Part shown: positions 27,824 through 59,442 of the stretch, in pieces
Numbering within the stretch: position 1 is the first letter of the stretch
How the letters are laid out: the number at the start of each line of letters is the position of its first letter
NCBI GenBank assembly: GCA_017454295.1
Contig: JAFTDF010000004.1
Coordinates: forward strand, 118,776-182,775
Direction of reading: 5' to 3'
From: Bacilli bacterium
Lineage (GTDB): Bacteria; Bacillota_I; Bacilli_A; RFN20; CAG-826
DNA length: 64,000 bases
Program-made: the position numbers and the translations under genes
The notes under the pieces: generated by a model
Databases searched by the model: none
Seen by the model: only the letters and a program-made list of their open reading frames with translations
Told to the model about the DNA's origin: nothing

Positions 27824-29641
27824 CTATTCTTTGCAATCTGCAAGGAAAACAAGCGAGTTTTCGTAACCGGCTTCAAGACGACTATTGGTGAGTTTTTCCG
27901 GATGGAAGCCCACATAGAAAGCCAGTTCGGCGGAAAGGCCAATGAAATAAGACCCAGGGAATAATAGCCAAGGCAAAACGCCGTTATAGCCGATGGCGGC
28001 CCCACCGATGGCTTGAAAGACAAAAGCGAATACATAGAAGCAAAGTTCCGCCCCCACCACTTGGGGATCGACGTGGCGGATCAAACAATACAACACCAAG
28101 CCGATCAAATAGAGCAGGCCCACGCCTTCGACGATGAAATAACCAGCAAAGGAATAACCGAGGAACAACGCGATATTCAAAATCAGGATCATGGCATAGC
28201 TGCAAGCCCGTAACCAAGGGAACCCTTGTTTCGGGGGATAGGCGACTTTGGTGGTTTCTTCTTTCAAATGGTTGGGACTAAGCCAGGGGAGGATCACGAT
28301 GAAGGCATAGCCGATGCTTTCCACCATCGCGTCGAAAAGGGAGGCGCTTTCGATGAAGCCGCGTGCCACCAAAGGCAAAGCCAAAATCAAATAAAAGACA
28401 TGGTCCTTCATCGCGCCTTTGCAGGAACGGGCGAAGCGATAACCAAGATATCCTAGCAAAGCCCCGAAAGCGGCCAATCTCAATAAGCCACCGCGTCCCA
28501 AGATTTCCAAAGCGACATTATGGGCCGTGCCATAGGAAGGCACATCCATGGCCACCGACATCAAATAGGAATAAATGACGTCCCCTTGGCCAAATAGCCA
28601 ATACACGGTCCCTTGATTGGTGAGGGCAAGCGAATCCTTCCAGATCGCCGCACGCGTGCCGACATTCGACCCTTCCCCGTTTTGAAAGAAAGAGGCCAAG
28701 GCGTTCCAGAAGGAAGCAAAGAAATTGGGTTTAGCGATGGCAAGCACCACCACACCGACAACGCCCACGGCAACGATGCCTAAGGGAATCGCCGCCTTCT
28801 TCCACGCGAAGGTTTTCTCTTGCTTGCGCCGGATGAGACGATAAACCATCAAAGAGGCGATGACGAAGACGGCCATCAGCAAGGAGGCTTTGCTGCCGGA
28901 GAAAAGAATCATCACGGCAAAGAAGACCATCATCAAATAACGCCACGGGCGGCCAAAACGTTCTAGTAACGCGGCCTCGGCGAATAAGGCCAGCAGCAAA
29001 TAATTCCCATACACGTTTTTACTGCCGGTATAGGAAACGATATTCGCGGAGAAAATGCCCTCGTTTAAGGCTTTGCCATATTCCCCCGCTTCGGTAAAGA
29101 GGCTATAAAGGGCCATCGATAGGCCTAGAAGAATCAAAATCTCATAGATCCAGGACCCACTATATTTGTTCTTTTTCCCGGCGGGGAAGAAACTGAAAAA
29201 CAAAAACAGCGTGAAACTCGTCAACACCCCGGAGACGAAAGCCTGCCCGGCGATTTGGTATTGATAATCGGGAATGGTGATGGACCCTTTGACGCCGGTG
29301 AAGGAATAGAAATTCTTATGGCAAAGCACGGCAATGAGGTTCCCGATGCCATAAACGGCGAAAATCCCCAAGAGCACATAGTCGATTTTGACATGGAAGA
29401 CCCTGATACCCATGAAGACATAAACGACCCCGACCAAAAAGGCGGCGGCGGCGAGGGTATAGAAGACCTCCAAGCGATAGAGATATTGGAATTCCGGGGT
29501 GAAACGGAATAACGGGATTTGGATAGCACAGCAAGAAAACACGGCGAACATCACAAACAGGAATTGATACCAAAAATAAGGCAATTCCGCGGCGGTCTCA
29601 GATCGAGTTGCATAACGTTGTTTCGCGCGTGCAAATAGCAT
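27824..29641 (-). CDS. O-antigen ligase / Wzy_C-family polytopic membrane protein (605 aa)
   Basis: More than 12 TM helices with a central loop carrying LFSGSKASLL, which is O-antigen-ligase-like. Confidence 0.6.
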   Translation of the reverse strand: MLFARAKQRYATRSETAAELPYFWYQFLFVMFAVFSCCAIQIPLFRFTPEFQYLYRLEVFYTLAAAAFLVGVVYVFMGIRVFHVKIDYVLLGIFAVYGIGNLIAVLCHKNFYSFTGVKGSITIPDYQYQIAGQAFVSGVLTSFTLFLFFSFFPAGKKNKYSGSWIYEILILLGLSMALYSLFTEAGEYGKALNEGIFSANIVSYTGSKNVYGNYLLLALFAEAALLERFGRPWRYLMMVFFAVMILFSGSKASLLMAVFVIASLMVYRLIRRKQEKTFAWKKAAIPLGIVAVGVVGVVVLAIAKPNFFASFWNALASFFQNGEGSNVGTRAAIWKDSLALTNQGTVYWLFGQGDVIYSYLMSVAMDVPSYGTAHNVALEILGRGGLLRLAAFGALLGYLGYRFARSCKGAMKDHVFYLILALPLVARGFIESASLFDAMVESIGYAFIVILPWLSPNHLKEETTKVAYPPKQGFPWLRACSYAMILILNIALFLGYSFAGYFIVEGVGLLYLIGLVLYCLIRHVDPQVVGAELCFYVFAFVFQAIGGAAIGYNGVLPWLLFPGSYFIGLSAELAFYVGFHPEKLTNSRLEAGYENSLVFLADCKE

Positions 29642-29687
29642 GACAATAGGATAGTCACCTTTTCCTTCAATTTCAAACTACCCAGGA

Positions 29688-29723
29688 GGAAAAAGAAAAA
29701 CACGCACCGCCAGACGATGCGTG
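29688..29723 (-). terminator. intrinsic terminator downstream of the tRNA-Leu/tRNA-Arg pair (9-bp stem CACGCATCG/CGGTGCGTG then TTTTTCTTTTT on the minus strand)
   Basis: Stem-loop and T-run seen directly. The plus strand also carries a T-run, so it may be bidirectional. Confidence 0.6.
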
Positions 29724-29735
29724 ATTACTTCTTTT

Positions 29736-29812
29736 TGGCGCGCCCGAGCCGACTCGAACGGCTGGCCTCAACCTTCGGAGGGTTGCACTCTATCCAACTG
29801 AGCTACGAGCGC
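29736..29812 (-). tRNA. tRNA-Arg (anticodon CCG), CCA encoded
   Basis: Minus-strand read GCGCTCGTAGCTCAGTTGGATAGAGTGCAACCCTCCGAAGGTTGAGGCCAGCCGTTCGAGTCGGCTCGGGCGCGCCA. Confidence 0.8.
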
Positions 29813-29819
29813 GTATGTA

Positions 29820-29906
29820 TGGTGCCCAAGGTGAGATTTGAACTCGCACTGCTGTTAACAACTCGCCCCTGAAACGAGCGCGTCTACCGTTCCGCCACTT
29901 GGGCAC
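29820..29906 (-). tRNA. tRNA-Leu (anticodon CAG), class II, CCA encoded
   Basis: Minus-strand read GTGCCCAAGTGGCGGAACGGTAGACGCGCTCGTTTCAGGGGCGAG...GTTCAAATCTCACCTTGGGCACCA. Anticodon loop TTCAGGG with U33 and G37. Confidence 0.75.
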
Positions 29907-29922
29907 GTGCACTACTATACCC

Positions 29923-30849
29923 TTATCGGAGGAAAAAGTCGATTATGGCTTTGATGATTTCCGGATCGTCTTGGTTGAGACGACGATAGTCGATTTCATA
30001 GCCGGCCTCACGGTCCACTGCGGCCATCTTTCGTTTTTGGAACACTTCCTCGTAATAGGCGCAAGAGGCATCCGTCCAATAGGGTTGATGTCCCCTGCCT
30101 TTGACTTCGAGGAAATGCACTTTGGGATTGGTGACGTGCTTTTGGAAATGGTAGAGGCATTCCGCGGTCAAACAAGTCGTATCCTTCTCCCCTTGGATAT
30201 AGAGGACTTCCGCCTCGGCTTGATTGAGTAAATCGGTGGCATCCACAACCCCCACTTCCCCATAATGACGACGGAGATAGCGGCACAATGGTCGATGGAG
30301 TTTTTTCACCGCCGGGGAGGCCCATTCCATAATGGAGGGGATGGAACGGAAGCCGGCGATGGAAACGACTTTTACCACGTGATATTGCTTTTGCAAAGCT
30401 AATAACGCGGCAAATCCGCCCCAAGAATGCCCAAAGGCATAACGGGACAAGCCTTGGGCCAAAGGCTCTTGGTCCAAAAATGCAAAGAAGGCTTGTTGGT
30501 CAAGTCCCACTTGCGCCAAGTTGCCGATGCCTTTGCCTTCCGACATCATCGAGCCGGTGTTGTCATAGGCATAGACGAGGAATCCTTGCTTTGCCATGGC
30601 GCAGATCTCTTGGGTATAGGATTCATGTCCCGCCCCGATGCCGTGGAAAAAGACCATGACGCCCCGATAGGGACCGTTGCCATAGAAGTAACGCTTCCCA
30701 TACAGGCGGTTATTGCCGGAGAGGAAGGAAAAAGAGGTGTTTTCTGCGCCGAAATCCCGCCCTTTGAAGTAGCGGATTTGAGGAGCGCCATCACCCCGAT
30801 ATCCGAGGGCTTTGGCGATATTTCGACCGATGATCCACTCCAAAATCAT
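29923..30849 (-). CDS. alpha/beta-fold hydrolase (dienelactone-hydrolase / S9-like)
   Basis: Nucleophile elbow GHSWGG and an HGIGAGHE oxyanion region. The ATG at 30849 overlaps the GH3 stop (ATGA). The track TTG extension was rejected. Confidence 0.7.
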   Translation of the reverse strand: MILEWIIGRNIAKALGYRGDGAPQIRYFKGRDFGAENTSFSFLSGNNRLYGKRYFYGNGPYRGVMVFFHGIGAGHESYTQEICAMAKQGFLVYAYDNTGSMMSEGKGIGNLAQVGLDQQAFFAFLDQEPLAQGLSRYAFGHSWGGFAALLALQKQYHVVKVVSIAGFRSIPSIMEWASPAVKKLHRPLCRYLRRHYGEVGVVDATDLLNQAEAEVLYIQGEKDTTCLTAECLYHFQKHVTNPKVHFLEVKGRGHQPYWTDASCAYYEEVFQKRKMAAVDREAGYEIDYRRLNQDDPEIIKAIIDFFLR

Positions 30850-33230
30850 TTGCGGCGCACCGGGACAAAGAAGTGCCAAATCGCCCGTAGATAATGGCCA
30901 TTGGCGGCATCGATGACCGCTTGGATCATCTTGGGGCGGAGTCCGCCCATGGATAAGTTACGAAGCGGCATCTCGTAGAGGAAGCGTTCCATGTCCTTGC
31001 GAACGCCCCCTTCTCCGGTAAAACGTTTCCGGAAGGCTTTGATGATGGTTTTCCCAACCAAGGTATAACGGGTATTCTCAATCGTGGAATTCCGATTGAA
31101 AGGACGGTTGCTGCGGTCGCGTTCGACGGGAATGGTATGGCCTAGAAGCTCTTCGAAGTCGTTATCGTAGGAGAGGAAGCCGTCTTCGGGAAGATGGTAA
31201 TAGACTGGGCAACGGGCTCTTAAGGAAGGGCAAACGTCATCGCTTAAAACATTCAGTTTGACTTGGCTGCGGACGGCGGTGCAGTCATCGCAAAGTTGGA
31301 TCGCGTATTCGCCCGCTTCGACCTTCCAGCAGCTCTCAGCGATATCGTAATGGGCGAAATCCTCATAACGGATTTCCAGATGGACGGTTTTGCGCTCCCC
31401 GGGTTCTAAGGCCACTTTCTTAAACGCGATTAAGGTACGAAGGGGCTTAAAGACGTTTTGTTTGGGTGGCTCTTGGTAGATTTGCACCAAGGCCTTGCCG
31501 CTGATTAAGGAGACGTTTTCGACTTCCACGGCGACATCAAGGAGTTCCCCCTTGCCGATTTTCTTCGCCGAAATCGCGGGGGCGCCGTATTTGAATTTGG
31601 CATAGCTTAAGCCATGGCCAAAGGGATAATTGACCTCTTTCCCACTGGAAAGATAGTAACGGTAACCGACATAAATCGATTCGCGGTATAAGGAGACGGC
31701 CTCGGCCCCAGGATAAAAACCAAAGGAAGGCACGTCATAAGCCCGCCGCGGCCAGGTCTCGGCCAAATGGCCGGAAGGCGAGGCTTTGCCTAAGAGAATG
31801 CGGTAGATGGCTTCGCCACCCCCTTCTCCCGGCAAATAGGTCAATAAGATGGCCTTGGCCTTGTCTTTAAAGGGCAATTCCACCGGCGCCCCGACATTAA
31901 GGACGACAATGATGTTCTGATTGACTTCGTAGATTTGGTTGAACAAGGAAATCTGTTCTTCAGGCAAATGCAAATCGGCGCGGTCATAACCTTCGCTTTC
32001 GTCGGTATGGTCGAGCCCCATGAACAAGATGACGCGACCGCCACGGGAGGCCAAGTCGACGGCATCGATGGCCAGTTTCTCATCATCGGGTTTTCCATCG
32101 AGTCGATAGCCCGGGGCGAAGAAGGTCGAGGTTTCCCCGTTCCAAGTGATGGCGCTGCCTAAGAAGGTATTCACATGGATCGGCGTTAATTTGGAGGAAC
32201 CGCCCCCTTGGAAATTGGGGGTGCGGGCAAGTTCGCCGATAATGCAGGTTTGCTTTAAGGAGCGAAGTGGCAAAATACCCTCGTTTTTCAATAAGACGCA
32301 AGATTCGGTCGCGGCTTTGATGGATAATTCGTGGGCCTCGCTTTCGCGGCAATGCTCGTAACGGACCTTACTATGGCAACGATTGAGCAATTTCACGATC
32401 CGTTCCACCGAATCGTCCACCGCCTCTTTCGCAAGCACGCCCGTCGACATCGCCCGTTTCAATTGAATTTGCCGGGAATAAGGACCGGGCATTTCGATAT
32501 CCAAACCATGGTTATGGGAGAGGATGTAATCATTGGTGCCGCCCCAATCCGACATCACGACGCCGTCGAATTTCCATTCGCCTTTGAGGATATCTTTGAG
32601 CAAATAGTCGTTATCCGAAGCATAGACCCCGTTGATTTTGTTATACGAGGACATGATCGACCAAGGATGGCCTTCCTTGACGGCGATTTCGAAGGGCTTG
32701 AGATAGATTTCGTGGAGGGCCCTTTGGTCGACGATGGAGTCGTTGATCATGCGGTGCCCTTCTTGGTTATTGCAGGCAAAATGCTTTAGACACGCCCCAA
32801 CGCCTTGGCTTTGGATGCCCGAAACAAAAGCGGCGCCTAGTTTCCCCGCCACGAGGGGATCCTCGGAATAATATTCGAAATTACGGCCGCAGAGGGGATT
32901 GCGTTTGATATTGATGCCAGGGGCCAAGAGCAAATGGGTGCCCGCATCGCGGCAGATCCGACCCATGGTTTTACCGACTTCGGTGACCAATTCTTCGTCA
33001 AAGCTTGAGGCCAAAGCGCAGGGCCCGGGGAAGCAAACCGAGGGCTCGCTTTTGGCATCGCCCACCGTGGATTCGTCTTTAAAGCGGACGAGGCCAAAGG
33101 GACCGTCGTGGACTTCGACGTCTTCGATCCCCAGCCGGGGAATTCCATGGAAATGCCAATTGCCCTGGCCATAAAGCAAAGCGGCTTTTTCGCCAGGATG
33201 CAAGGTATCGAGTTTCTTTTTGCGTGCCAT
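30846..33230 (-). CDS. glycoside hydrolase family 3 beta-glucosidase (BglX-like)
   Basis: GH3 motifs KHFACNNQE and GVVMSDWGG, plus a C-terminal Fn3-like domain. Start set at the internal ATG (MARKKKLDTLHPGEKAALLYGQGNWHF). Confidence 0.85.
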   Translation of the reverse strand: MARKKKLDTLHPGEKAALLYGQGNWHFHGIPRLGIEDVEVHDGPFGLVRFKDESTVGDAKSEPSVCFPGPCALASSFDEELVTEVGKTMGRICRDAGTHLLLAPGINIKRNPLCGRNFEYYSEDPLVAGKLGAAFVSGIQSQGVGACLKHFACNNQEGHRMINDSIVDQRALHEIYLKPFEIAVKEGHPWSIMSSYNKINGVYASDNDYLLKDILKGEWKFDGVVMSDWGGTNDYILSHNHGLDIEMPGPYSRQIQLKRAMSTGVLAKEAVDDSVERIVKLLNRCHSKVRYEHCRESEAHELSIKAATESCVLLKNEGILPLRSLKQTCIIGELARTPNFQGGGSSKLTPIHVNTFLGSAITWNGETSTFFAPGYRLDGKPDDEKLAIDAVDLASRGGRVILFMGLDHTDESEGYDRADLHLPEEQISLFNQIYEVNQNIIVVLNVGAPVELPFKDKAKAILLTYLPGEGGGEAIYRILLGKASPSGHLAETWPRRAYDVPSFGFYPGAEAVSLYRESIYVGYRYYLSSGKEVNYPFGHGLSYAKFKYGAPAISAKKIGKGELLDVAVEVENVSLISGKALVQIYQEPPKQNVFKPLRTLIAFKKVALEPGERKTVHLEIRYEDFAHYDIAESCWKVEAGEYAIQLCDDCTAVRSQVKLNVLSDDVCPSLRARCPVYYHLPEDGFLSYDNDFEELLGHTIPVERDRSNRPFNRNSTIENTRYTLVGKTIIKAFRKRFTGEGGVRKDMERFLYEMPLRNLSMGGLRPKMIQAVIDAANGHYLRAIWHFFVPVRRK

Positions 33231-33341
33231 AACGTAGTTATTATGCGCAATTGCGCGATAAAGGTAAAGCCAAACGACCGAAATCGAAGAATATGCGTCT
33301 TCGATGCGCAGGAAAAGGAAATCCTCTACAATAGGGCCGTT

Positions 33342-33836
33342 ATGAAAAAGACCATTTATCTTGCCGGTGGATGCTTCTGGGGCGTCCAAGCCTACTTCGA
33401 TCAATTAAAAGGGGTCCTCTCGACCCGCGTGGGATACGCTAACGGCGCCACCGCCTTCCCCAAATACGAGGAAGTCAAAACCGGGAAAACCGGCCATGCC
33501 GAAACCGTAAAGATCGATTACGAGGATTCCGAAATCACCCTCACCGAACTATTGGAACATTATCTGCGTTTCGTCGATCCCTATTCTTTGAATAAGCAAG
33601 GACATGACGAAGGCACCCAATACCGCACCGGGGTCTATTACACCGATGTCCTCGATGGCGTCGATGCGGAAGTTTATCTCAATGAGAAATGCGGGAAGGA
33701 ACACAAAATCGAAATCGAGAAGATGCTGAATTTCTTCCCTGCTGAAGCCTATCACCAAGACTATTTAAAGAAAAATCCAGGTGGATATTGCCACGTGGAT
33801 TTGTCCTTAGCCAAAGCAAGCGAGAAAAAGAACTAA
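33342..33836 (+). CDS. msrA: peptide-methionine (S)-S-oxide reductase
   Basis: GCFWG active-site motif; 164 aa. Confidence 0.85.
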   Translation: MKKTIYLAGGCFWGVQAYFDQLKGVLSTRVGYANGATAFPKYEEVKTGKTGHAETVKIDYEDSEITLTELLEHYLRFVDPYSLNKQGHDEGTQYRTGVYYTDVLDGVDAEVYLNEKCGKEHKIEIEKMLNFFPAEAYHQDYLKKNPGGYCHVDLSLAKASEKKN

Positions 33837-33892
33837 GAATGAATTGAAAAACCCGCGGCTTAACGTCACGGGTCAAAGTCCAAAGAGAAAAA

Positions 33893-34522
33893 CTAGAAAA
33901 ACTCTTCTTCTAGACGTAGACAAAGATAGTGATAGATGGGTAAATGCAGTTCCTGAACCTTAAAGGTTTCGCTTTCGTCTACGGCGATGGTCATATCGGC
34001 GATTTGCTTGAGTTCGCCACCGCTTCTGCCGGTCAAACCTAAAACTTTTAAACCCAAGGCTTTGGCGCATTGGGCACCTAAAGAGACGTTGCGGGCATTC
34101 CCCGAAGTGGAGATGCCCAAAAACACATCGCCCGGCTTGCCAAGGACGTTGACTTGTTGGGCATATACGAGTTCCGCACCATGAGGGACGTCATTGGCGA
34201 AGGCGGTATTGAGCCCGGCATGATTATGCAAAGCGATGGCGGGAAAGCCTTCCTGAAGTTCATCGCATAATAGCTGGCCGTCTTTTTGTCGAAGCAAATT
34301 AGCCGCTTTCGATTGAGGCACGGTCCGTTTCTTTTTAAATCCCTTCATCAGTTCGCCGACGATATGATCGGCATCGGCGCAGCTGCCACCGTTACCGCAA
34401 ACCAAAAGCTTGCCGCCGTTTTGGTAGCACGCCTTCAAAACCGCATAAGCGGCTTCGATTTGGTCTTTGCTAGAAGCGAGGACCGGATAACGTTGTATGA
34501 GATCTTCGATGGTATATTGCAT
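33893..34522 (-). CDS. gmhA: SIS-domain phosphoheptose isomerase
   Basis: VCGNGGSCADADH motif and length match GmhA. Confidence 0.7.
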   Translation of the reverse strand: MQYTIEDLIQRYPVLASSKDQIEAAYAVLKACYQNGGKLLVCGNGGSCADADHIVGELMKGFKKKRTVPQSKAANLLRQKDGQLLCDELQEGFPAIALHNHAGLNTAFANDVPHGAELVYAQQVNVLGKPGDVFLGISTSGNARNVSLGAQCAKALGLKVLGLTGRSGGELKQIADMTIAVDESETFKVQELHLPIYHYLCLRLEEEFF

Positions 34523-35532: not shown

Positions 35533-35542
35533 GGTTGGAATA

Positions 35543-35571
35543 GAAAAAAGGCCGAAAGAAGACTTCCGACC
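35543..35571 (-). terminator. intrinsic terminator directly after gpmA (GGTCGGAAG-tctt-CTTTCGGCC then TTTTTTCTATT)
   Basis: Stem-loop and T-run seen on the minus strand. Confidence 0.55.
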
Positions 35572-35578
35572 ATAGGGA

Positions 35579-36289: not shown

Positions 36290-36353
36290 TTTTGGCTCCT
36301 TATTTTTCTGTGTGCAATTATAGCAAGTATGGGCGGGTGCGCAAATAAGCGCG

Positions 36354-37673: not shown

Positions 37674-37754
37674 AGGGTTCTCCGTAAAGTTTCTTTAAGA
37701 AAGCGACCCCATTTTATACTAATCGCCAAGGGAAAACCACCATGCGTTATGCGT

Positions 37755-37777: not shown

Positions 37778-37784
37778 TTTGGTA

Positions 37785-46466: not shown

Positions 46467-46476
46467 GGAGAATCCC

Positions 46477-48120: not shown

Positions 48121-48141
48121 TCGAAAATAGCGGCAACCTTT

Positions 48142-51166: not shown

Positions 51167-52950
51167 TGGACCCCTCCTTTAAAATTCATGCTGGTAAGGA
51201 AAAAATACAACGGACGGATGTCCTCGGTTTCCTCAACCTTTTTATCAAAAATGCATTGGATAAAATAATTCTCGTTTTTATTGAAGTTAGGCAAAGACAC
51301 CTCGTTTTGGTTTTCGGTGCAAGCAGCATGATATTTCTCCACTCCGTCGACATAAATCGTCATCGTACCGCCGAATTGTGCATCGGTAATGAACCAATGG
51401 AAGAACAGGGTCTCGCTATCTCCAGAGTTCAAAAGCACACGGAAATTCTCGCCACACCAATGGTCAAATGCCGGATCCTGGGGCGCTTGATACCCGCTTA
51501 ATCCGTAATAATAACCCGTTGTATAAAAATCATTGGTGATTGGGGCGGTAGAGAACATATCAAAACGGTTCTTACGCAGGGTGGTGACGTAATTAAAGGA
51601 CTCTTGTTGGTTCAAGCCGATGCAACTGTTTCCTTCGTCGTCAACCGCAATATCAGCCGGCTTGCCCGCCGTTTTTAAAGCATATAAGGCTTGAGGATCC
51701 GAGTTCCAAAAACCATAACGGGCCGTCCCATAGGAACCAAGGGCAGACACCGAGACGCAAATCGCTAAGAGAACCGCCCCGCAACCAACGAGCAAATTGG
51801 TCCGATCTTTTTTTCCTTCGCGGGCTGGCCGATGGGAGAAGAAAGTTTTGAGGTCGCAAGCACAAAGCGTGGCACCGGCAAGGAAAAACAACGTGAATGC
51901 CGCATCGTAATCGTTGGCCATAGGATGGGCATTGAATAAACCGTGCCACAAACACAGGGAAATCAGTCCGATTTTCGCCAAAAAGGGAACCAGCGAATCG
52001 GCAAGCCCACGACGGACATCCAAAACGCAACAAGCCACGAGGCAGGCAAACATAATGGAACCAAAGAGAATAATCCCAACGTGGATGAGTTTCGCCAAAA
52101 GCTGAAGAGCCGCGATATCCGTCTTCCAAATCGTTAGGCTCCCGAACGAATTCGGCGCCAAAGAAGAGAGGACGTTGAGTAGATAATCTTTGAAAGAGAA
52201 GTCAGAAAAGCTGGGTAAAAGCGAAGAACCGGATGCCCAATAAATCGATTGATGGGCAATAAAAAGGATTGCCGAAACGGCGAAAAGAATGAGCGCGTTG
52301 CGCCGTCTTAGGCCTTTTACCCACGAGTAGACCAAATAAGCAAAACCCATCAGTAAGGCGATGAATGTGAAGCTTGATGCAAGCAAGAAACAGGAAAGCA
52401 CCGAGAAAGCACAAGGGAGGATCCAGTATTTAAGACGCGGGTTCTCATTGGACAAGAAGCGTCGTAATGACCAGAAATAACCTAGCAAAACAAGCGCGGA
52501 GAGATAAAGATAAGGGCCGGAAGGGGAACTGTTTCCGTTGAGTGGGTTAAAGAAGACAAAGCCGAAGAAAAACAGGCCGACGACCCGCAAGTAGAAAGGT
52601 GTTTGTTCGCCGATTAATAGCCGACCGGCAAAAATCCAATATAAGATGGCCAATACCACATAGATCAAGGCAAGGCCGAAACGGAAAAAGCCTGAGGGTC
52701 CTAACCAGCGGATGAACGGTTCGAAAAAAAGCAATCCGTTCCCTTGGGAAGTCCATAGACCGTTATTCTCAGAAATCGCATGGAACCATCCCTGCGTTTC
52801 AGGGATTGCGAAGAAAAAATAAAGGAAAGTTCCGATTCCGAAAACCAGGGCGGAAAGAAGCCAGAGGAAGGGCTCTTTCTTAAGGTGGCTTAGGAAAGAC
52901 GTCCAACAAGTGACTAAACTGGGTTTTTGTGGCAAATCAGTCGTCGTCAT
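51163..52950 (-). CDS. polytopic membrane protein with a C-terminal extracytoplasmic domain (GT-C-like)
   Basis: 595 aa; GAGGAGGAGAGG ribosome-binding site. Similar architecture to 48142..49965. Confidence 0.55.
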   Translation of the reverse strand: MTTTDLPQKPSLVTCWTSFLSHLKKEPFLWLLSALVFGIGTFLYFFFAIPETQGWFHAISENNGLWTSQGNGLLFFEPFIRWLGPSGFFRFGLALIYVVLAILYWIFAGRLLIGEQTPFYLRVVGLFFFGFVFFNPLNGNSSPSGPYLYLSALVLLGYFWSLRRFLSNENPRLKYWILPCAFSVLSCFLLASSFTFIALLMGFAYLVYSWVKGLRRRNALILFAVSAILFIAHQSIYWASGSSLLPSFSDFSFKDYLLNVLSSLAPNSFGSLTIWKTDIAALQLLAKLIHVGIILFGSIMFACLVACCVLDVRRGLADSLVPFLAKIGLISLCLWHGLFNAHPMANDYDAAFTLFFLAGATLCACDLKTFFSHRPAREGKKDRTNLLVGCGAVLLAICVSVSALGSYGTARYGFWNSDPQALYALKTAGKPADIAVDDEGNSCIGLNQQESFNYVTTLRKNRFDMFSTAPITNDFYTTGYYYGLSGYQAPQDPAFDHWCGENFRVLLNSGDSETLFFHWFITDAQFGGTMTIYVDGVEKYHAACTENQNEVSLPNFNKNENYFIQCIFDKKVEETEDIRPLYFFLTSMNFKGGVQ

Positions 52951-53899
52951 TGATCCTCTCCTCCTCTACGACGAAAGGCCGATGGAGGACACGCGTGTTG
53001 ATTTGCAAGACATATTCGCCCACCATGCCCAAGAAGAAGAGGATGATGCCGGTGAAGATGGCCGAGGAAGTAATAATCGGATAAACAATGCTCGGATGGG
53101 CGGTGCCATTGGCGATCGCGATAAAAAGGAACACCAGATACACCACAAGGCCGGCAAAGCCAAGGAATCCGAGGAACGCGCCGACAAACGTGGCGATGCG
53201 GACGAAGAACTTGGTATAAGAAGTGATGCCATTCATGGCCATGTCGTAAAGGGTACCGAAATTGTTGTGGCTCTTGCCGGCACGACGTTCGGGTTGGACA
53301 TATTCAATGCGGGTCATCTTGTAGCCGAGTTCGGCAACGATGCCACGCATATAGGGGTAAGGATCGTCGAGGCCGGCCAACACCTGAATAAAACTTTGGT
53401 CATACAGCCCAAAACCCGTGAAATTCTCGATTTGTTCAACATCGGAGATCCGGTGGATAATGTGGTAATAAAGCTTCCGGATGGCGTGCACGATGGGGTT
53501 GGTTTTGCTCTTTTTCTTCGTGCCGACGATGACACGATAGCCTTCTTCCCATTTATGGACGAACTCGGGAATTAATTCCGGGGGGTCTTGGAAGTCGGCG
53601 CACATCAGCATCACCAAATCGCCCTTAGCTTGCGTTAGCGCATGATAGGGAGAACGGATATGCCCGAAGTTTTTGGCATTAAAAATGCAACGTACGTCTT
53701 TGTCCTCTGCGCAAATCTCACGCAATAAAGCCCGTGTATTATCGGTAGAGCAGTTATCAATAAAAAGGATTTTGGTCCGATAATTCGGTAATTGTTCGTT
53801 GGTGACCCGACGAATTTCGGCCACTAAAGGTTTGACGTTTTCCTCTTCGTTGTAGCAGCCAATAACGATCTCCAATGTCTTTTTAGTTTCTTGGTCCAT
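52937..53899 (-). CDS. GT2 polyprenyl-phosphate glycosyltransferase (GtrB/DPM1-like) with two C-terminal TM helices
   Basis: DxD (IDNCSTD), a DPM1-like catalytic core, and a C-terminal membrane anchor. Confidence 0.85.
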   Translation of the reverse strand: MDQETKKTLEIVIGCYNEEENVKPLVAEIRRVTNEQLPNYRTKILFIDNCSTDNTRALLREICAEDKDVRCIFNAKNFGHIRSPYHALTQAKGDLVMLMCADFQDPPELIPEFVHKWEEGYRVIVGTKKKSKTNPIVHAIRKLYYHIIHRISDVEQIENFTGFGLYDQSFIQVLAGLDDPYPYMRGIVAELGYKMTRIEYVQPERRAGKSHNNFGTLYDMAMNGITSYTKFFVRIATFVGAFLGFLGFAGLVVYLVFLFIAIANGTAHPSIVYPIITSSAIFTGIILFFLGMVGEYVLQINTRVLHRPFVVEEERINDDD

Positions 53900-54057
53900 A
53901 AGAATTCCGGTGAATATTTATATTCAATAACTCCGGATAGACTATGGCACAAAACAGCATCAATGCCAAGACAAACCTGAGCACAAGATGCCAAGGAGGA
54001 GACCCAATATGGTTTTCATCGTCCGCAACTGCGCTTTTTTGATAAACTATCGGCGAA

Positions 54058-55140
54058 ATGAAAACGAAATTCCACATTGATGTGCTTGATCTCTTGCGTT
54101 TCCTCGCAACAATGTTCGTTTTTTGTTTGCATGGGCGCGGTTTCGTTCCTGAATTGAATCAGCGGACCGACACATGGATTGGACGTTATTTCTACCTGCC
54201 TGCTTGGGCAGGTGTCTGGATTTTTCTTTTTCTTTCGGGGTTTTTGTTCGCCCTCGCCATGCAAAACAACCGATACGGAATCTTGAATGAAAAGGGCGGC
54301 ATCAATTTCAAAAATCTTGGTTGGTTCTATCTCTCGCGCCTCATTCGTTTTGGAGGGCTCTATTTCTTCTACCTTCTTCTGTTTGAGTTGTTCAGCCGCG
54401 GTGGGTTTATCATTTCTAATCCCCAAGTTGGATTAAGAGTGATTTTCTTCTGTTTTGACGGTAATGGCGGAGTCTCGGAAACCGGCCATCTTTGGTATAT
54501 CTCCACCGCTATTCAACTCTACGTTTTGATGCCTTTCATCTATTTCGGATTCCACCACCTTGCAAAAAAGTGGCCCAAGACCCCTTTATTAGCCTTTTTT
54601 GTTATAATGGCGCTTGGGTTTGCTTGGCGCGTTGGAACCAAAGACGCCGATATTGATTGGTACACTTGGATTTATGCCTTCTCCTTATCAAATCTCGATT
54701 TGGTGTGTTGCGGAATGCTGTTAGCATTCCTGCTTCCTGCGTTCTCGGCCTCAAAGGTACACAAGATTCTTTCTGCCCTCTTGTTTACAGGGCTTGTCGT
54801 TTATAACTCCTATATTTATGCAATCGGCGATTTATATATCTACCAACGCGTTTTGCCCTCGGCTTACCTTTTGCTTTGTTCTTATCTCGTCCTCGCTTTC
54901 TATAAACCGGTACGTGGAACCGGATTCTTCGCTTTCTTTAGTAAATATTCCTATGGTTTCTATATTTTTCACGTCGCTTGCTTCCACTTGGCTTCGGCGA
55001 TTCTACTAAAGACTGGTTGGGGTCTCGGACCTTATGGCGCAACGGTTTTTGTTTATCTATTAGCTTTTAGCTTTGCTCTGGGGGTTTCTTATTTCTGCAC
55101 AAAATACATCCGTTTCCCAAACATTAGGAGGTCGGCCTAA
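54058..55140 (+). CDS. acyltransferase family 3 (OatA-like O-acyltransferase) membrane protein
   Basis: 10 TM helices; N-terminal FDLLRFLATMFVFCLHG motif. Confidence 0.8.
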   Translation: MKTKFHIDVLDLLRFLATMFVFCLHGRGFVPELNQRTDTWIGRYFYLPAWAGVWIFLFLSGFLFALAMQNNRYGILNEKGGINFKNLGWFYLSRLIRFGGLYFFYLLLFELFSRGGFIISNPQVGLRVIFFCFDGNGGVSETGHLWYISTAIQLYVLMPFIYFGFHHLAKKWPKTPLLAFFVIMALGFAWRVGTKDADIDWYTWIYAFSLSNLDLVCCGMLLAFLLPAFSASKVHKILSALLFTGLVVYNSYIYAIGDLYIYQRVLPSAYLLLCSYLVLAFYKPVRGTGFFAFFSKYSYGFYIFHVACFHLASAILLKTGWGLGPYGATVFVYLLAFSFALGVSYFCTKYIRFPNIRRSA

Positions 55141-56084
55141 TGAACCTGGCAGTTTGGACTTGTTTTGCTTTGTTGCTCACCGGCTTGCCACGGCCCCTTC
55201 CTCTCGGCCAGTCCTCCGAGCACGGCACTAAGGACAATCCCTATATCATTTCCTCCGCTGCAGATTTAACGGATTTAGCCAAAGCGGTGAATGAAGAAGG
55301 GCGTTCTTTTCGCAACCAATGGTTCGTCCAAAGTTCCGATATCGATTTAGCTGGAGTCGACTTCATCCCCATCGGTACTTTTGATTCCCAGGCCCATTTT
55401 GAAGGTATTTACGATGGCGACGGCCACGTTCTGAAAAATCTTTCTATTAACCGCGTAGATAACGCCGGCTTATTCGGCGCTCTTGGCGGCGTAGTGATGA
55501 ACCTTGGCATCGAAAGCGGCAACATACATGGGGCTTGCACAGGTGCGTTTAGTTCTCACTCTTCTTCCTCCGATGCCTTAATTTTTAATTGTTATAACAA
55601 GGCAAACGTCAGCGGTGGACGGGCTGGCGGTATCGCCGATAACTTCAATGGAACGATTCTATCCTGCTATTCCGATTGCGTTTTATCTGGTGGAGAAATC
55701 GGTGGACTCGTTTCTTACGCGGCAGCGCGAATTTCTTTTTCCTTTTGCGCCAACAACGAGCCGTTCCCCCCTGGTGTCAACATCGGCCAAAATTGCTATC
55801 GCGTCGCTACGGAGGAAAGCAGCCAAACTGCCGAAAAGCTGAATCAGAGTCTTTATTCTGTTTCCACGCACGGTTTAGCTTTCTCCAACGCCAATACTTG
55901 GATTTCCGAAGCGGGTGAATTAAAACAAAAGGGGAAAGCCCAGTTTGATCTTTGGCGCTACCTAGGAGCTAATTGGCTCAACCTTTTGCCCTATGGCTTT
56001 GCCTTCCTTTCTATCAGCGGCATCTGCGTTGGCTGGGGCATCGGTGTCAACAAAGCTAAAAAGAAAGCGCAAAACGAGGAGTAA
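55140..56084 (+). CDS. exported GLUG-motif protein with a C-terminal TM anchor
   Basis: Signal peptide, repeated G-L/I-x-G motifs (AGLFGALGGVVMNLG, RAGGIADNFNGTI) and a C-terminal TM plus KKAQNEE. AGGAGG ribosome-binding site. Confidence 0.55.
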   Translation: MNLAVWTCFALLLTGLPRPLPLGQSSEHGTKDNPYIISSAADLTDLAKAVNEEGRSFRNQWFVQSSDIDLAGVDFIPIGTFDSQAHFEGIYDGDGHVLKNLSINRVDNAGLFGALGGVVMNLGIESGNIHGACTGAFSSHSSSSDALIFNCYNKANVSGGRAGGIADNFNGTILSCYSDCVLSGGEIGGLVSYAAARISFSFCANNEPFPPGVNIGQNCYRVATEESSQTAEKLNQSLYSVSTHGLAFSNANTWISEAGELKQKGKAQFDLWRYLGANWLNLLPYGFAFLSISGICVGWGIGVNKAKKKAQNEE

Positions 56085-56091
56085 GATAAAC

Positions 56092-57258
56092 ATGATGAAC
56101 TCCACCAAACGACTAGACTATCCCGACATTTTCAAAGGCATCGCCATTTTGCTGATGGTAATCGGCCATTGCGGAGGCGACAACTGGTTTGTTGGTTTTG
56201 TCTACGGGTTTCATATGCCCGCCTTCTTCTTCATCACCGGCTTCCTCACCGATTTCAAGAAAGGAACGACGGCTTCGTTCGCGGTCAAGCGTTTCCTCAC
56301 CTTGCTCGTTCCGTTCTTTTTCATCTGTTTCCTATTCCTTTCGATCAAATCCTTGTTACTGTTGATTCCCGGATATGTCTCCCCGTTTGGATGGCAAGAC
56401 ATTTCTTATGGCGATGCTTTACGGCTGCTTTTTACCAGAGGGGACGCCTATAGCCAACCCTTGGGTGCGATGTGGTTCCTTCCGGCTTTATTCTTTGCTT
56501 CCCTGATCATAAAGTTTTTGGTAAAGGCGTGCGAAGGGAAACGATGGCTGGTGTTCATCTTCTCTTCGATTCTTTGTGCGTTAGGGTTCTATTTGATTTC
56601 CATCGAATATGCCGATTTTATTTGGTTGCTTCGCCCCAAGCACGTCCTCATCGCCCAATACTTCATTTGCCTTGGTTGGCTCGTTGGGCAGTCACCATTA
56701 ACCCGCAAGTTCCTAAATAAAGAGCACATCTGGGTTCCGGCAATCTGCTTTGCCGTGACGTTCACGCTCTCTTTGCTTCTCTCTTTGGTTGGCCATTACC
56801 GCCTAGATATGTCCGAATGCTTCTATCCGAAACCGACCTGGCTTGTCCTCGTGTCTCCTTTATCGGGGTCGTTGATGCTTCTATCCTTGTCCGTTTTGAT
56901 TTCGGCACTTCCAAAATACGTGGCCAAGCCTTTCGTTTCTCTAGGCAGGGCAAGCCTGGCCATTATGGTGTTCCACTTCCTTGGTATGAAGTTATTCGGT
57001 TTGTTTTTGGTCGGCATCGGTCACTATGAATACCAAGCGATCTTCCCGGTCGTACCGCCCGATGGAGCGCTAGGCATTGTCCGTTTCGCGTATGTGGTAT
57101 TGTCGATTGCGTTCTCAATTGGCCTTTACGAAGGATTACGAAGGATTCCGGTGGCCAATGCTTTGTTCGGGTTAAATCCCCGATACGCGAATATCGTCGG
57201 CGAAAAAGTCGAAAACAAAATCATCAATCTTACAAAGGAACCGGATTCCGGGATTTAA
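56092..57258 (+). CDS. acyltransferase family 3 membrane protein (second copy)
   Basis: YPDIFKGIAILLMVIGHCGG motif; GAGGAG ribosome-binding site. Start at an internal ATG. Confidence 0.8.
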   Translation: MMNSTKRLDYPDIFKGIAILLMVIGHCGGDNWFVGFVYGFHMPAFFFITGFLTDFKKGTTASFAVKRFLTLLVPFFFICFLFLSIKSLLLLIPGYVSPFGWQDISYGDALRLLFTRGDAYSQPLGAMWFLPALFFASLIIKFLVKACEGKRWLVFIFSSILCALGFYLISIEYADFIWLLRPKHVLIAQYFICLGWLVGQSPLTRKFLNKEHIWVPAICFAVTFTLSLLLSLVGHYRLDMSECFYPKPTWLVLVSPLSGSLMLLSLSVLISALPKYVAKPFVSLGRASLAIMVFHFLGMKLFGLFLVGIGHYEYQAIFPVVPPDGALGIVRFAYVVLSIAFSIGLYEGLRRIPVANALFGLNPRYANIVGEKVENKIINLTKEPDSGI

Positions 57259-58193
57259 TCTTTTTTCGCTTTTTTGCGGCAAGCCATCACGGTGATAACG
57301 ATTGCCGTGGCCACCAAAGCAAGGTAAGGAAGCAAAGGCACAAGCCACATTTTCAAGAACGTGAAGAAACGGAAACCCATTTTTTCTGTTTGGCCAAACA
57401 CCCCGTTTTCATAGGCCCAGCCATTGGTGGCGGCACGGGAAATCAGGTTCCCAACGCCTTCGTAAGAGTAACGGTTTAGCGAATTGGCGACGGATTCGTC
57501 CAGATAAAGGACTTGTTCGCAATCCATAAGGTCCTTTTGTCCCGCCGGAAACGGGGAGAAAGTCGCATAACAATGGGACGCGGAAAAAACGCTATACGAG
57601 CAAATACCTCCCCTTGCTTCGGTGCCGAGCAAAAAGCAATCGGACGCGCAGCAAATGATGGCACCGTTAAAATTATCGGCGATTCCCCCGGTACGGAGGC
57701 CGTCTAGGCGATTATTCAGAGCGTAGCAATTGAAAACCACCGCATCGATAGAGGCGGAATGGCTTGTAATGGATCCCGCGCAGGAGCCGGAAATAAAGGA
57801 ATCGATGACACCCAAATTCATGCAGATCCCGCCTAATTGCCCGAAAAAACCGCCAAAACCCGCTCGATCGACGTTCATGTGTGAAATGGTATGCCCGTCA
57901 CCATCATAAACGCCGAGGAAATAGGAAGCAGAGTCTTCTAATCCGACGGGCACCCATTCATCGTTTTCCAAATCAATGTCGTTGGTTTGCCGAAAAACCC
58001 TGCCTTCAAAGCCCTCTCCATCGTTCACTAAGTCAGCAAAGGTAAACAAGTCTTCCTTCGTCGCTATTAGGTAAGGATTCTCCGCCGTCCCTTCACCGGA
58101 AAAAGGCGTCGATGAAGACGGGGCGAAAGGAGACGTTCCGGCTGAACAAGAGACCAAGAAGAAGAGCAATACAAGGCTACGCAGCGATTTCAT
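57255..58193 (-). CDS. GLUG-motif lipoprotein with a C-terminal TM anchor (paralogue of 55140..56084)
   Basis: Lipobox LVSC. Collinear with the paralogue through NPYLI..DL...A.LVN, DIDL, YDGDGH, RAG.GG.FG.LGG..MNLG. GAGGAAAG ribosome-binding site. Confidence 0.55.
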   Translation of the reverse strand: MKSLRSLVLLFFLVSCSAGTSPFAPSSSTPFSGEGTAENPYLIATKEDLFTFADLVNDGEGFEGRVFRQTNDIDLENDEWVPVGLEDSASYFLGVYDGDGHTISHMNVDRAGFGGFFGQLGGICMNLGVIDSFISGSCAGSITSHSASIDAVVFNCYALNNRLDGLRTGGIADNFNGAIICCASDCFLLGTEARGGICSYSVFSASHCYATFSPFPAGQKDLMDCEQVLYLDESVANSLNRYSYEGVGNLISRAATNGWAYENGVFGQTEKMGFRFFTFLKMWLVPLLPYLALVATAIVITVMACRKKAKKD

Positions 58194-59442
58194 GTTCTTT
58201 CCTCTTTGAAATACGTTGCGAAATCGCCTGCCCATAAGCGGAAGCAAGCATGACGATGATCGAGCAATTGATAAGTAACGTTCCGTGATCGATGGCTCCG
58301 GGACGGTAGCGGGAATAATTGAACACAGCCGGTAGCGCCATCGGCGTCAGGATCAGGAGTAGGCAAATGAAGGGCAATACATTGGTCCAATTCAGTTTTG
58401 GTTCTTCCTTTAACAAATAAAGCAAAGGGACGACGAAGAAAATCAACGTATACGTGTAGGAGAAAGTAGGAACCCAAATGCAAAGCATGACCAAGGAAAG
58501 GGTTCGTTGATAATCGGTTTCCGCCAAGAAGAACAACGGCAACGTGAAAACGGCGGCGACGATACCAGCCACGAGCGGCGTTATGACGATGGTTCCACCG
58601 CTTAATTCGGCAGCGATGGAAAAGAGGTTCAGGAATGAGAACCCATGGGCCGAACCCAAATTCGTCAAAGCCTGATATTCGCCTAGTTCGCGGATATAAT
58701 CCATCATCCGAACGAAATCCCCTAAGCCATGGAAAGCGAAGAAAGGAAGGAAAAACACCAAAACCCCAAGGACGGCTAGCAGTCCTGCTTCCCAAAACCG
58801 CTTTTTTAAAAGCACCAATAAGCCAAATACGGCAGGATAGATTTTCAAAGCGGCCGAAACGGCCAAGCAGAAATAAGCGACGATGCGCAAAGGAAGCTTT
58901 TCGGAATCGTAGAGCAAAAGGAAGGATAAGAGGAACACCAACGCCAGGATAATGAAATTGCCACGCTCCAAAGCAAAAAGGAACGGGCCCGAGAAAACAA
59001 AAGCCGTAGCGAAGAGATATTTCCCTTTATGCCCTTTGGGGGAAAAAGCGAGGATACATAGAAACGCTCCGAGAATACAAACCAAAATAAAGAACAAAAA
59101 CCCGATTCCGGCCGGGGTATATTCCCGCAAGGAATAGGAATCGATAATCACATAATCTCCAGGAATGAGTCGATAAAGGAAAGAAAAGATCAGCAAGATG
59201 AGAGGCGGGTAATTCGATTTAAAGGAATAGGGATCTCCGTTCACCACCCGGGGCAGGATGTTGAAATAGTCCATGAATAGGTCGTGATAATCCCGTGAGA
59301 AATAGGATTCCATGGCCAATCCATGGGTCGCTAGCACAATGATCCAATAAATAACCCCAAGGGCGATCAAAGACAAAGCAAAGAGGAACGAGGTGTCGCT
59401 TTCGAGGAAAAAGGCTTTCGTCTTTTCGAGGAAGCGGTGCAT
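58177..59442 (-). CDS. DUF2029/GT87-like polytopic membrane glycosyltransferase candidate
   Basis: ALERGNFIIL, KIYPAVF, LLKKRF motifs. AAGAGGA ribosome-binding site before the ATG. Confidence 0.55.
   Translation of the reverse strand: MHRFLEKTKAFFLESDTSFLFALSLIALGVIYWIIVLATHGLAMESYFSRDYHDLFMDYFNILPRVVNGDPYSFKSNYPPLILLIFSFLYRLIPGDYVIIDSYSLREYTPAGIGFLFFILVCILGAFLCILAFSPKGHKGKYLFATAFVFSGPFLFALERGNFIILALVFLLSFLLLYDSEKLPLRIVAYFCLAVSAALKIYPAVFGLLVLLKKRFWEAGLLAVLGVLVFFLPFFAFHGLGDFVRMMDYIRELGEYQALTNLGSAHGFSFLNLFSIAAELSGGTIVITPLVAGIVAAVFTLPLFFLAETDYQRTLSLVMLCIWVPTFSYTYTLIFFVVPLLYLLKEEPKLNWTNVLPFICLLLILTPMALPAVFNYSRYRPGAIDHGTLLINCSIIVMLASAYGQAISQRISKRKEHEIAA

Follow-up and report, generated by a model that had tools for sequence, protein, structure and literature searches.

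We analysed a 64,000-nucleotide stretch of contig JAFTDF010000004.1 (positions 118,776 to 182,775, hereafter the window), whose proteins appear in NCBI under names of the form "MAG: ... [Bacilli bacterium]" (MAG, metagenome-assembled genome) with locus tags IJU64_009xx, and in particular its interval 27824-59442, which the original prediction had described as a cell-surface glycosylation island. Protein families were assigned by Pfam and NCBIfam scans using the cut-offs of the models, tRNA genes were called with ARAGORN, and membrane helices were located with a transmembrane (TM) scan; the GC content is about 0.50 all along the window. The interval does contain glycan genes, but it also holds an unrelated alpha/beta hydrolase, a GH3 glycoside hydrolase, msrA and gpmA. 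The region is probably a chromosomal, strain-variable cell-surface glycan locus of uncultured rumen Bacilli.

The nucleotide-sugar synthesis genes expected from the original prediction are present, with RfbF, RfbG and RfbH all scoring above their NCBIfam cut-offs. On the minus strand lie RfbH (E1), a CDP-6-deoxy-4-keto-glucose 3-dehydrase (36354-37673; NF011936, 708 bits, cut-off 423), RfbG, a CDP-glucose 4,6-dehydratase (37785-38873; TIGR02622, 395.7 bits, cut-off 278), and RfbF, a glucose-1-phosphate cytidylyltransferase (38845-39621; TIGR02623, 362 bits, cut-off 300). The RfbH sequence reads FYPAHH where the Schiff-base lysine would be and contains a C-x-C-x7-C motif; we take the His-for-Lys replacement and the cluster motif to be E1 features. 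RfbH keeps this iron-sulfur motif with no E3 gene accompanying it in the window and in the related loci L009, L011-L013, L015, L016 and L019. The same strand encodes a short-chain dehydrogenase/reductase (SDR; 41022-41933, PF01370), a candidate sugar ketoreductase of the YerF/ErwF type. Its best PDB match is 2pk3 (E 1.2e-15), a GDP-6-deoxy-D-lyxo-4-hexulose reductase, which places it closest to a sugar 4-ketoreductase, and its gene adjoins the thiamine diphosphate (ThDP) enzyme gene described below in L011-L013 and L015-L017.

Five plus-strand genes follow. They encode a second RfbF-like sugar-1-phosphate nucleotidyltransferase (42110-42880; 42% identical to RfbF, with a TIGR02623 score of 248.8 bits, below the cut-off of 300), a soluble 588-aa P-loop protein resembling phosphoenolpyruvate carboxykinase (PEPCK) and HprK (42883-44649; GDSGAGKSE motif, no Pfam model), a YerE/ErwE/JanthE-like ThDP carboligase (44619-46466), an HMGL-like pyruvate aldolase of the DmpG/BphI type (46447-47484; PF00682, PDB 3dxi, 4lrs and 1nvm), and a HAD-IA phosphatase (47485-48120; PF13419). 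The carboligase has the canonical GDG...NN ThDP motif at residues 467-495, and its best PDB match, at 407 bits, is JanthE (8rph), whereas acetolactate synthases reach about 226 bits and PpYerE (5ahk) 208 bits; JanthE is a characterised YerE-like carboligase that accepts ketones (PMC12188165). The best NCBIfam matches of the aldolase, NF006049 and TIGR03217 (4-hydroxy-2-oxovalerate aldolase), fall below the equivalog cut-offs. For the 588-aa protein, a sequence search of the PDB gave nothing useful; it has more than 1800 homologues, some of them named PEP carboxykinase in NCBI, and is a member of the cassette in L002, L003 and L009, while many homologues stand alone, e.g., in Clostridium and on a 1.47-Mb metagenome contig. 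In L009, RfbH, the SDR, the nucleotidyltransferase (NTP-transferase), the 588-aa protein, the HMGL-like aldolase, the HAD phosphatase and the ThDP enzyme form one co-directional block beside Wzx and GT87 genes. A phosphonate/MEP-like reading of the NTP-transferase/P-loop/ThDP/aldolase/HAD cassette was considered and rejected: it contains no PEP mutase, and the ThDP enzyme is of the full three-domain YerE/acetolactate synthase type and co-occurs with RfbH.

YerE-like enzymes decarboxylate a 2-oxo acid and attach the product to CDP-4-keto-3,6-dideoxy-D-glucose, and ErwE prefers 4-hydroxy-2-oxo acids (PMC12247030). In the erwiniose cluster, the CDP-keto-dideoxy-sugar genes stand together with those for ErwE, ErwF (a reductase), ErwI (a BphI-like pyruvate aldolase) and ErwJ (PMC9306805). 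Because the ThDP enzyme of the window is far closer to JanthE than to acetolactate synthases, and because its neighbours reproduce much of the erwiniose parts list, the sugar genes appear to fit the YerE/ErwE scheme for acyl-branched 3,6-dideoxyhexoses, with the HMGL-like aldolase as a candidate source of a 4-hydroxy-2-oxo acid donor, by analogy with ErwI (PMC9306805). The product we infer is a CDP-activated, acyl-branched 3,6-dideoxy sugar whose branch is longer than acetyl.

The polyprenyl-phosphate glycosyltransferase (GT) of the original prediction proved to be a full-length GtrB homologue, a GT2 protein with two C-terminal TM helices (52937-53899, minus strand; PF00535). Its first PDB match is GtrB (5ekp, E 9e-37, residues 8-310), followed by ArnC and DPMS; the TM helices span residues 245-263 and 275-293, and the best NCBIfam matches, PgfS and ArnC, are below cut-off. 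The closest relatives of the protein come from Erysipelotrichaceae and from MAGs of Ca. Enteromonas. When the GT2 was used to scan 185,579 species genomes, it matched 10 loci, with identities of 48-74%, whose hosts are Erysipelotrichaceae, Ca. Enteromonas, Christensenella intestinihominis, Christensenellaceae, Lachnospiraceae and the candidate phylum Ca. Magasanikiibacteriota. Eight of the 10 lie on contigs of sufficient length, and in all 8 a YerE-like ThDP gene is found no more than 10 kb from the GT2 gene; RfbF, RfbG and RfbH were all seen in 6 of these 8, the other two (L017 and L018) being contigs of less than 8 kb. In L010, one of the two cut-short contigs, RfbF and RfbG were seen before the contig end. 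The GT2-anchored loci usually carry an SDR and a Wzx-like gene as well, and a polytopic protein of at least 8 TM helices is encoded in all 10, for example a GT87-like protein in Ca. Enteromonas or, in the cultured Christensenella intestinihominis (L015), a PMT_2 protein of 975 aa. Locus L015, from strain AF73-05CM02, combines this PMT_2 gene with RfbF, RfbG, RfbH, ThDP enzyme, SDR, GT2 and Wzx-like genes. Because the GT2 gene adjoins the pathway, Wzx-like and polytopic protein genes across families and phyla, these loci point to lipid-linked, extracytoplasmic transfer of the branched sugar.

The Wzx flippase of the original prediction stands in a qualified form. The 420-aa protein (39741-41003, minus strand; at least 9 TM helices) has no Pfam match of its own, but PF01943 is present in homologues 43-56% identical to it, and PF13440 and MatE in more distant ones, and it is therefore a candidate for a divergent Wzx/MOP flippase. 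Its gene is linked to the ThDP cassette in L003, L008, L009, L011-L013 and L016. No membrane gene of GtrA size fits in the tightly packed locus.

Two DUF2029-like proteins had been expected, and both belong to GT87 above the Pfam cut-off. GT87 copy a (49958-51166; PF09594, 53.3 bits, cut-off 25) and copy b (58177-59448; PF09594, 55.8 bits), the latter the last gene of the variable locus, are GT-C glycosyltransferases encoded on the minus strand. An invariant aspartate, D52, lies in the first outer loop, where Gtr-type GT-C enzymes carry an acidic residue. The further claim, that there are three or more GT-C-like transferases, is secure for these two only: of the remaining candidates, a 618-aa protein matches PMT_2 below the cut-off and a 595-aa protein matches no family. 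Likewise, all three large polytopic proteins that had been described (605, 618 and 595 aa) are present, but the 605-aa Wzy_C protein has an internal loop rather than a C-terminal outer domain.

The 618-aa protein (48142-49998, minus strand) is polytopic and PMT_2-like (E 2.8e-4), with a C-terminal outer domain. In the alignment of its family an Asp-Asp pair (D58, D59) is invariant and lies in the first outer loop, twelve residues after TM1, and the protein is probably a GT-C enzyme. Searches of PDB sequences with this protein and with GT87 copy a gave nothing useful. The 595-aa protein (51163-52950, minus strand) is an orphan with a C-terminal beta-sandwich. A word-indexed search of 5.8 billion proteins returned a single homologue and an exhaustive HMMER search of 1.84 billion gave a family of 9 cluster representatives; none of the 9 members has a Pfam match, and the scan of the 185,579 species genomes found no relative. 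Profile comparison with hhalign aligned the 595-aa family with the 618-aa family over 525 columns (97.6% probability, E 2.9e-12), with Ser-Gln at the positions of the Asp-Asp pair, which makes the 595-aa protein, a member of a very rare family, a distant, DD-less paralogue of the 618-aa protein. An AlphaFold2 (AF2) model built from the 9-sequence alignment (pLDDT 74) has about 11 helices and a confident C-terminal beta-sandwich, and this domain resembles CBM6/35/51 weakly in a Foldseek search of the PDB (E of at least 0.01). The protein may be a partner without catalytic activity or with a different one.

The genes for GT2, the 595-aa protein, GT87 copy a and the 618-aa protein overlap one another on the minus strand, and this module recurs in L002, L003 and L010. 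In L003 (1877-4903), GT87 and the 618-aa family protein are fused in one open reading frame (ORF) of 1008 aa, a fusion that ties the two together functionally.

Beyond this module, the plus strand at 54058-57258 encodes an Acyl_transf_3 (AT3) acyltransferase, a 314-aa anchored exoprotein (55140-56084) and a second AT3 acyltransferase (PF01757 for both), and the minus strand at 57255-58247 a 330-aa lipobox protein with a C-terminal anchor and a GLUG/IgA1-protease-like region (weak match to PDB 3n6z, E 8e-5). The 314-aa and 330-aa proteins are 38% identical paralogues, and both combine a signal peptide or lipobox with a C-terminal TM anchor. Their genes are interleaved with the two acyltransferase genes, and homologues of them adjoin GT2 in L014 and L016; the two proteins could be partners of the acyltransferases or substrates for glycosylation. 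At the other end of the interval, the O-antigen-ligase-like gene of the original prediction encodes the 605-aa polytopic Wzy_C protein (27824-29641, minus strand; PF04932, 45.7 bits, cut-off 31.7), which has about 11 TM helices and a large internal loop between the helix ending at residue 302 and that starting at 415. Its sequence is consistent with either a polymerase or a ligase.

Comparison with relatives located one boundary of the locus. The right flank (59445-63646), which comprises a class I/II aminotransferase, a YhcG nuclease, a 175-aa protein and a His_Phos_1 protein assigned by Pfam, keeps the same order in two rumen contigs, L002 and L021, which are equally close to the window there. 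L002 aligns with 41158-62970 of the window as a single collinear block that includes the right flank, at 78.3% nucleotide identity. Its sugar-synthesis proteins are 85-96% identical to those of the window, its GT2 96% and its GT87 copy b 91%, whereas the values are lower for the 595-aa protein (61%), the 618-aa protein (68%), GT87 copy a (75%) and the two anchored exoproteins (74-76%); the exposed or specificity-related proteins (61-76% amino acid identity) thus diverge faster than the sugar-synthesis genes (85-96%). L021 shares the flank (aminotransferase 91%, YhcG 85%, 175-aa protein 83%, His_Phos) and is 77.8% identical to window positions 59447-63615 at the nucleotide level, with homology ending at 59447. 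To the left of that point it carries an AT3 acyltransferase, a Wzx protein (56% identity), a 618-aa protein with a weak GT87 match and a GT_STM0557_N protein, i.e., a different glycan locus and not an empty site. The synteny comparison suggested with the original prediction therefore gave one relative collinear through the right flank and another with different glycan genes left of 59447. Because the right flank is common to these relatives, the break at 59447 is sharp and different glycan genes lie beyond it, 59447 is a real breakpoint and the region acts as an exchangeable glycan cassette whose place in the chromosome is fixed. For the left flank, a metagenome scan with the Wzy_C protein found no match and a scan with the GH3 protein gave only proteins of at most 46% identity. 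In L003, L008, L009 and L020 the same modules are shuffled further. The glycan loci of L020 (12478-21299) and L008 (17459-21296) abut defence or abortive-infection-type genes, namely AAA_21/AAA_15 ATPases, Fic, AIPR and a UvrD-like helicase.

O-antigen and capsule loci are known to be replaced as cassettes between conserved genes, galF and gnd in Enterobacteriaceae and dexB and aliA in pneumococci. The window locus is similar in its conserved right flank, the sharp break at 59447, the alternative gene sets beyond it and the faster divergence of its exposed or specificity-related proteins, and it differs in its embedded housekeeping genes, its near lack of a GC drop and in that its right boundary alone is mapped.

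The part of the original prediction that placed a lipid-linked, outward-facing glycosylation system here is supported: the GtrB homologue occurs together with a Wzx/MOP-like protein, a PMT_2-like protein and the two GT87 proteins, and the arrangement recurs in many genomes. We consider lipid-linked, branched-sugar glycosylation of the cell surface the best explanation of the locus, with a probability of about 0.6. In this scheme, RfbF, RfbG and RfbH would convert glucose-1-phosphate to CDP-4-keto-3,6-dideoxy-D-glucose, and the HMGL-like aldolase would make a 4-hydroxy-2-oxo acid, which the YerE/ErwE-like ThDP enzyme would decarboxylate and join to C-4 of the keto sugar. The SDR would then reduce the new carbonyl, giving a CDP-activated acyl-branched sugar of the erwiniose/yersiniose type. 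The GtrB-type GT2 would load this sugar onto polyprenyl phosphate at the inner face of the membrane, the Wzx/MOP-like protein would flip the lipid-linked sugar, and the GT-C enzymes (the two GT87 proteins and the 618-aa PMT_2-like protein) would attach it to an acceptor at the outer face, with the DD-less 595-aa paralogue as a putative partner or acceptor-binding subunit. The two AT3 acyltransferases may O-acylate the product, and the Wzy_C protein may polymerise or ligate a glycan. Candidates for the acceptor are a wall polysaccharide, a lipoglycan or glycolipid, and a surface protein.

Several points weigh against this explanation. The genes themselves were observed, and each biochemical step is deduced from their presence. 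We know of no GtrB-type enzyme that uses a CDP-sugar. The E3 reductase for RfbH (RfbI/AscD/DdhD) is absent from the ORFs scanned in the window and from the related loci, and in the Christensenella locus L015 a PfkB kinase occupies the gap where it might be expected; the E3 gene could lie elsewhere in the genome. An ErwJ-type acetaldehyde dehydrogenase was likewise not found in the window or in related loci, and the second RfbF-like enzyme, the 588-aa protein, the HAD phosphatase and a GmhA/HddA-like pair have no step in the scheme. GtrA is absent, and the flippase role of the Wzx-like protein is a prediction from its homologues. The GT-C status of the 618-aa protein depends on a sub-threshold Pfam match and a motif, and the AF2 model of its N-terminal domain, made from an alignment with the 595-aa family, is unusable (pLDDT 44); for the AF2 model of the 595-aa protein, there was no GT-C protein among the best 50 PDB matches listed and none had an E value of 0.001 or less. 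Finally, the 64 kb encode no initiating phosphoglycosyltransferase, which leaves the pathway that builds the acceptor out of view.

Much of the same gene content would also suit a classical Wzx/Wzy heteropolysaccharide locus for a capsule, secondary wall polymer or O-antigen-like glycan, in which a Leloir GT adds the CDP-branched sugar to a unit linked to undecaprenyl diphosphate (Und-PP), Wzx flips the unit, Wzy_C polymerises or ligates it, and GT2 and the GT-C proteins add only an ordinary hexose side branch. Wzx-like and Wzy_C proteins are indeed present, a Bac_transf initiating transferase accompanied by an extra GT2 is found in both L008 and L020, the window has two GT8 genes 16 kb leftward, and the known branched-sugar clusters all use Leloir transferases (PMC9306805). 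However, 27.8-59.4 kb contains no phosphoglycosyltransferase, chain-length regulator or cytoplasmic Leloir GT, the transferases beside the pathway in L011-L013 are only the GtrB-like GT2 and a GT87-like protein, and the adjacency of GT2 and ThDP genes across families and phyla is hard to square with unrelated use of a UDP-hexose, and we therefore regard such a locus as unlikely. Protein O-glycosylation, with GT2 and GT-C modifying the two anchored GLUG-like exoproteins or other surface or S-layer proteins as in the streptococcal Pgf system and its GtrB/GT-C enzymes, has a precedent, at least in outline, in PMC12041528. It would accord with PgfS being the best NCBIfam match of GT2, with the resemblance of the PMT_2-like protein to protein mannosyltransferases, and with two paralogous anchored exoproteins whose genes are interleaved with transferase genes and whose homologues accompany GT2 in L014 and L016. 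The 330-aa protein also has a Ser/Thr/Pro-rich stretch after its lipobox, but this stretch is short, AT3 acyltransferase genes and not GT-C genes are the partners of the exoprotein genes, and the exoproteins are absent from most GT2-anchored loci. This alternative, which seems distinctly improbable to us, concerns the acceptor only and is compatible with lipid-linked branched-sugar transfer.

The original prediction went further and took the adjacency of tRNA genes to suggest horizontal acquisition of the interval, an island of about 31 kb flanked by such genes. Its right end at 59442 agrees with the homology break at 59447, whereas on the left, glycosyl and lipid genes (two GT8, an acyltransferase and DAGK) extend beyond its start. 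The tRNA genes named there were found, i.e., tRNA-Arg(ccg) (29736-29812) and tRNA-Leu(cag) (29820-29904), both on the minus strand beside the Wzy_C gene and close to the left end, and tRNA-Leu(caa) (25894-25980, plus strand) about 4 kb earlier, outside the locus and with no apparent link to it. They do not flank the interval, however: the tRNA-Arg/tRNA-Leu pair sits between its first and second genes and none is present at the right end, leaving tRNAs on a single side. No integrase, recombinase or transposase was found among the window ORFs scanned, and apart from one 18-nucleotide exact direct repeat (25882-25899 and 49455-49472), the window contains no second copy of any 13-mer from either tRNA region. 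This repeat is improbable as a chance event. It was rejected as an att site, as it covers the 5' end of tRNA-Leu(caa) and its other copy lies within the 618-aa gene; no other att-like repeat of a tRNA end was seen. In composition the interval differs little from the left half of the window, with gene GC of 0.494 versus 0.508 (0.49 versus 0.51), GC3 of 0.591 versus 0.627 (SD 0.04) and a dinucleotide distance delta* of 21.8 with no local peak. Codon-usage distance between the interval and the rest is 0.133, compared to 0.065-0.175 for contiguous blocks of the same size, and at least one contiguous gene block deviates more strongly than the interval within its stated limits. The comparison with the left half that had been proposed as a check thus yielded flat GC and a mild codon shift confined, within the interval, to 48.1-59.4 kb: codon usage at 27.8-48 kb is that of the left half (B 0.089, with random splits giving 0.077 ± 0.014), whereas no nine-gene block of the window deviates more in codon usage than 48.1-59.4 kb (B 0.245 versus a median of 0.126). 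The shift there, lower C3 and higher T3, was not attributable to membrane-protein composition, since membrane genes of the left half keep high C3, and its trend runs on into the conserved right flank. Although this block and the different genes left of 59447 in relatives that share the right flank are what an acquired island might show, gpmA and msrA lie inside the interval and a relative at 78% nucleotide identity is collinear over 21.9 kb including the flank. Horizontal acquisition of an island integrated beside the tRNA genes is, in our judgement, very improbable.

The proposed lipid-linked branched-sugar system can be set against known systems on several levels. In its sugar genes it is like the clusters for yersiniose A (Yersinia pseudotuberculosis), erwiniose (Pectobacterium atrosepticum) and caryophyllose (Mycobacterium marinum, MMAR_2332), which share with it the CDP-4-keto-3,6-dideoxyglucose genes, a YerE-like carboligase, a BphI/DmpG-type aldolase and an SDR (PMC9306805). 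It differs from them in that E3 and ErwJ were not found and in its extra RfbF-like, PEPCK-like P-loop and HAD genes; moreover, those clusters belong to proteobacterial or mycobacterial hosts and use Leloir GTs, whereas the window belongs to a Bacilli lineage and encodes a GtrB-type GT2 and GT-C proteins. In its transfer genes it resembles the Gtr systems (GtrA/GtrB/GtrC) of Shigella and Salmonella, with a GtrB-type GT2 bearing two C-terminal TM helices beside polytopic GT-C-type proteins; Gram-positive counterparts are CsbB/GtcA/YfhO, which act on lipoteichoic acid, and PgfS/PgfM1/PgfM2 of Streptococcus mutans. The common logic of these systems is a monosaccharide donor linked to lipid phosphate and used outside the membrane (PMC11127046; in outline also PMC7389260). 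Unlike Gtr, the window has a Wzx/MOP-like protein in place of a small GtrA/GtcA flippase, a predicted donor that is a CDP-branched dideoxy sugar and not UDP-Glc or UDP-GlcNAc, and several GT-C candidates (two GT87 proteins and the 618/595-aa pair) instead of one.

Another parallel is the pentofuranose system of Citrobacter youngae O1/O2, which comprises a polyprenyl-phosphoribose synthase, a MATE-family flippase and a GT136 GT-C enzyme (PMC11127046). Both have a candidate flippase of the MOP/MATE superfamily for a polyprenyl-phosphate monosaccharide and a GT-C enzyme for the final outward transfer (PMC11127046), and they differ in lipid charging, by a PRPP-dependent synthase in C. youngae and a GtrB-type GT2 here, as well as in the sugar and the GT-C families. 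Among the GT87 enzymes of mycobacteria, PimE and the related LM/LAM mannosyltransferases use lipid-linked polyprenyl-phosphomannose donors outside the membrane, and the catalytic aspartate of PimE lies in its first loop. The two GT87 proteins of the window are similar in scoring above the Pfam cut-off and in their invariant first-loop aspartate; they resemble PimE at the family level only, without a PDB sequence match, and come from a Bacilli host in which the donor is probably not mannose.

The remaining genes of the interval lie toward its left end. The alpha/beta hydrolase and GH3 glycoside hydrolase (29923-33404, minus strand; Pfam, contig gene calls) have no biosynthetic part in the glycan system, and a terminator-like hairpin at 29701-29723 belongs to the tRNA-Arg/tRNA-Leu pair, downstream of it. 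The two hydrolase genes are followed by the housekeeping gene msrA (33342-33836, plus strand; PF01625, E 1.3e-53) and, on the minus strand, by a GmhA-like SIS isomerase and an HddA-like GHMP kinase (33893-35532; TIGR00441, 141 bits, and NF049969, 151 bits, both below cut-off), possibly a heptose-phosphate branch, and by the housekeeping gene gpmA, a 2,3-BPG-dependent phosphoglycerate mutase (35579-36289, minus strand; NF010713, 327.5 bits, equivalog cut-off 305). gpmA lies directly downstream of the RfbH gene on the same strand, and a terminator-like hairpin (35550-35571) is found just downstream of gpmA. The His_Phos_1 protein of the right flank (62864-63646) is a distant gpmA paralogue (30% identity).

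To the left, DAGK (25951-27012) and a methyltransferase adjoin the interval. A plus-strand run at 11845-16181 contains the two GT8 genes (11.8-14.5 kb), an unassigned 261-aa protein, a PlsC-type acyltransferase and an EEP-family phosphatase, and together with DAGK could form a glycolipid- or anchor-synthesis cluster that furnishes the acceptor. At 16612-21169, the gene of a MacB-type ABC ATPase is grouped with those of an FtsX permease of 858 aa and a Big_2 surface protein, and near GT2 in the Ca. Enteromonas locus L012 (5122-7896) there is a fused ABC/FtsX gene of similar type. ORFs of the left half with no Pfam match are located at 6790-8718 (one of 642 aa), 1272-1919, 4824-5306 and 12934-13719.

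As the product of a genome scan this is a fairly ordinary glycan locus, and its novelty lies in an unusual combination of known kinds, Gtr-type three-component glycosylation with a YerE-type branched-sugar pathway. More tentatively, and at somewhat less than even odds, the loci may represent a pathway not previously described and common to gut Firmicutes and at least one candidate-phylum lineage, in which a CDP-branched sugar is transferred to polyprenyl phosphate by a dedicated GtrB subfamily, flipped by a Wzx-like protein and attached by GT-C enzymes that include the uncatalogued 618/595-aa family. If the coupling holds, the cultured Christensenella intestinihominis carries a simpler version of the pathway. 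The YerE-like carboligase and aldolase may be of interest in biocatalysis for making tertiary alcohols (PMC12247030). YerE-type sugars have so far been found in Gram-negative lipopolysaccharides, mycobacterial lipooligosaccharides and some antibiotics. If the proposed scheme is true, it would extend the donor range of GtrB-type enzymes to CDP-activated branched sugars, with the first CDP-sugar-dependent polyprenyl-phosphate GT, and would be the first evidence of such branched-chain sugars in the envelope of Firmicutes, including common gut commensals. The surface glycans of uncultured rumen and gut Firmicutes, about which almost nothing is known, determine phage receptors, host recognition and serotype-like diversity.

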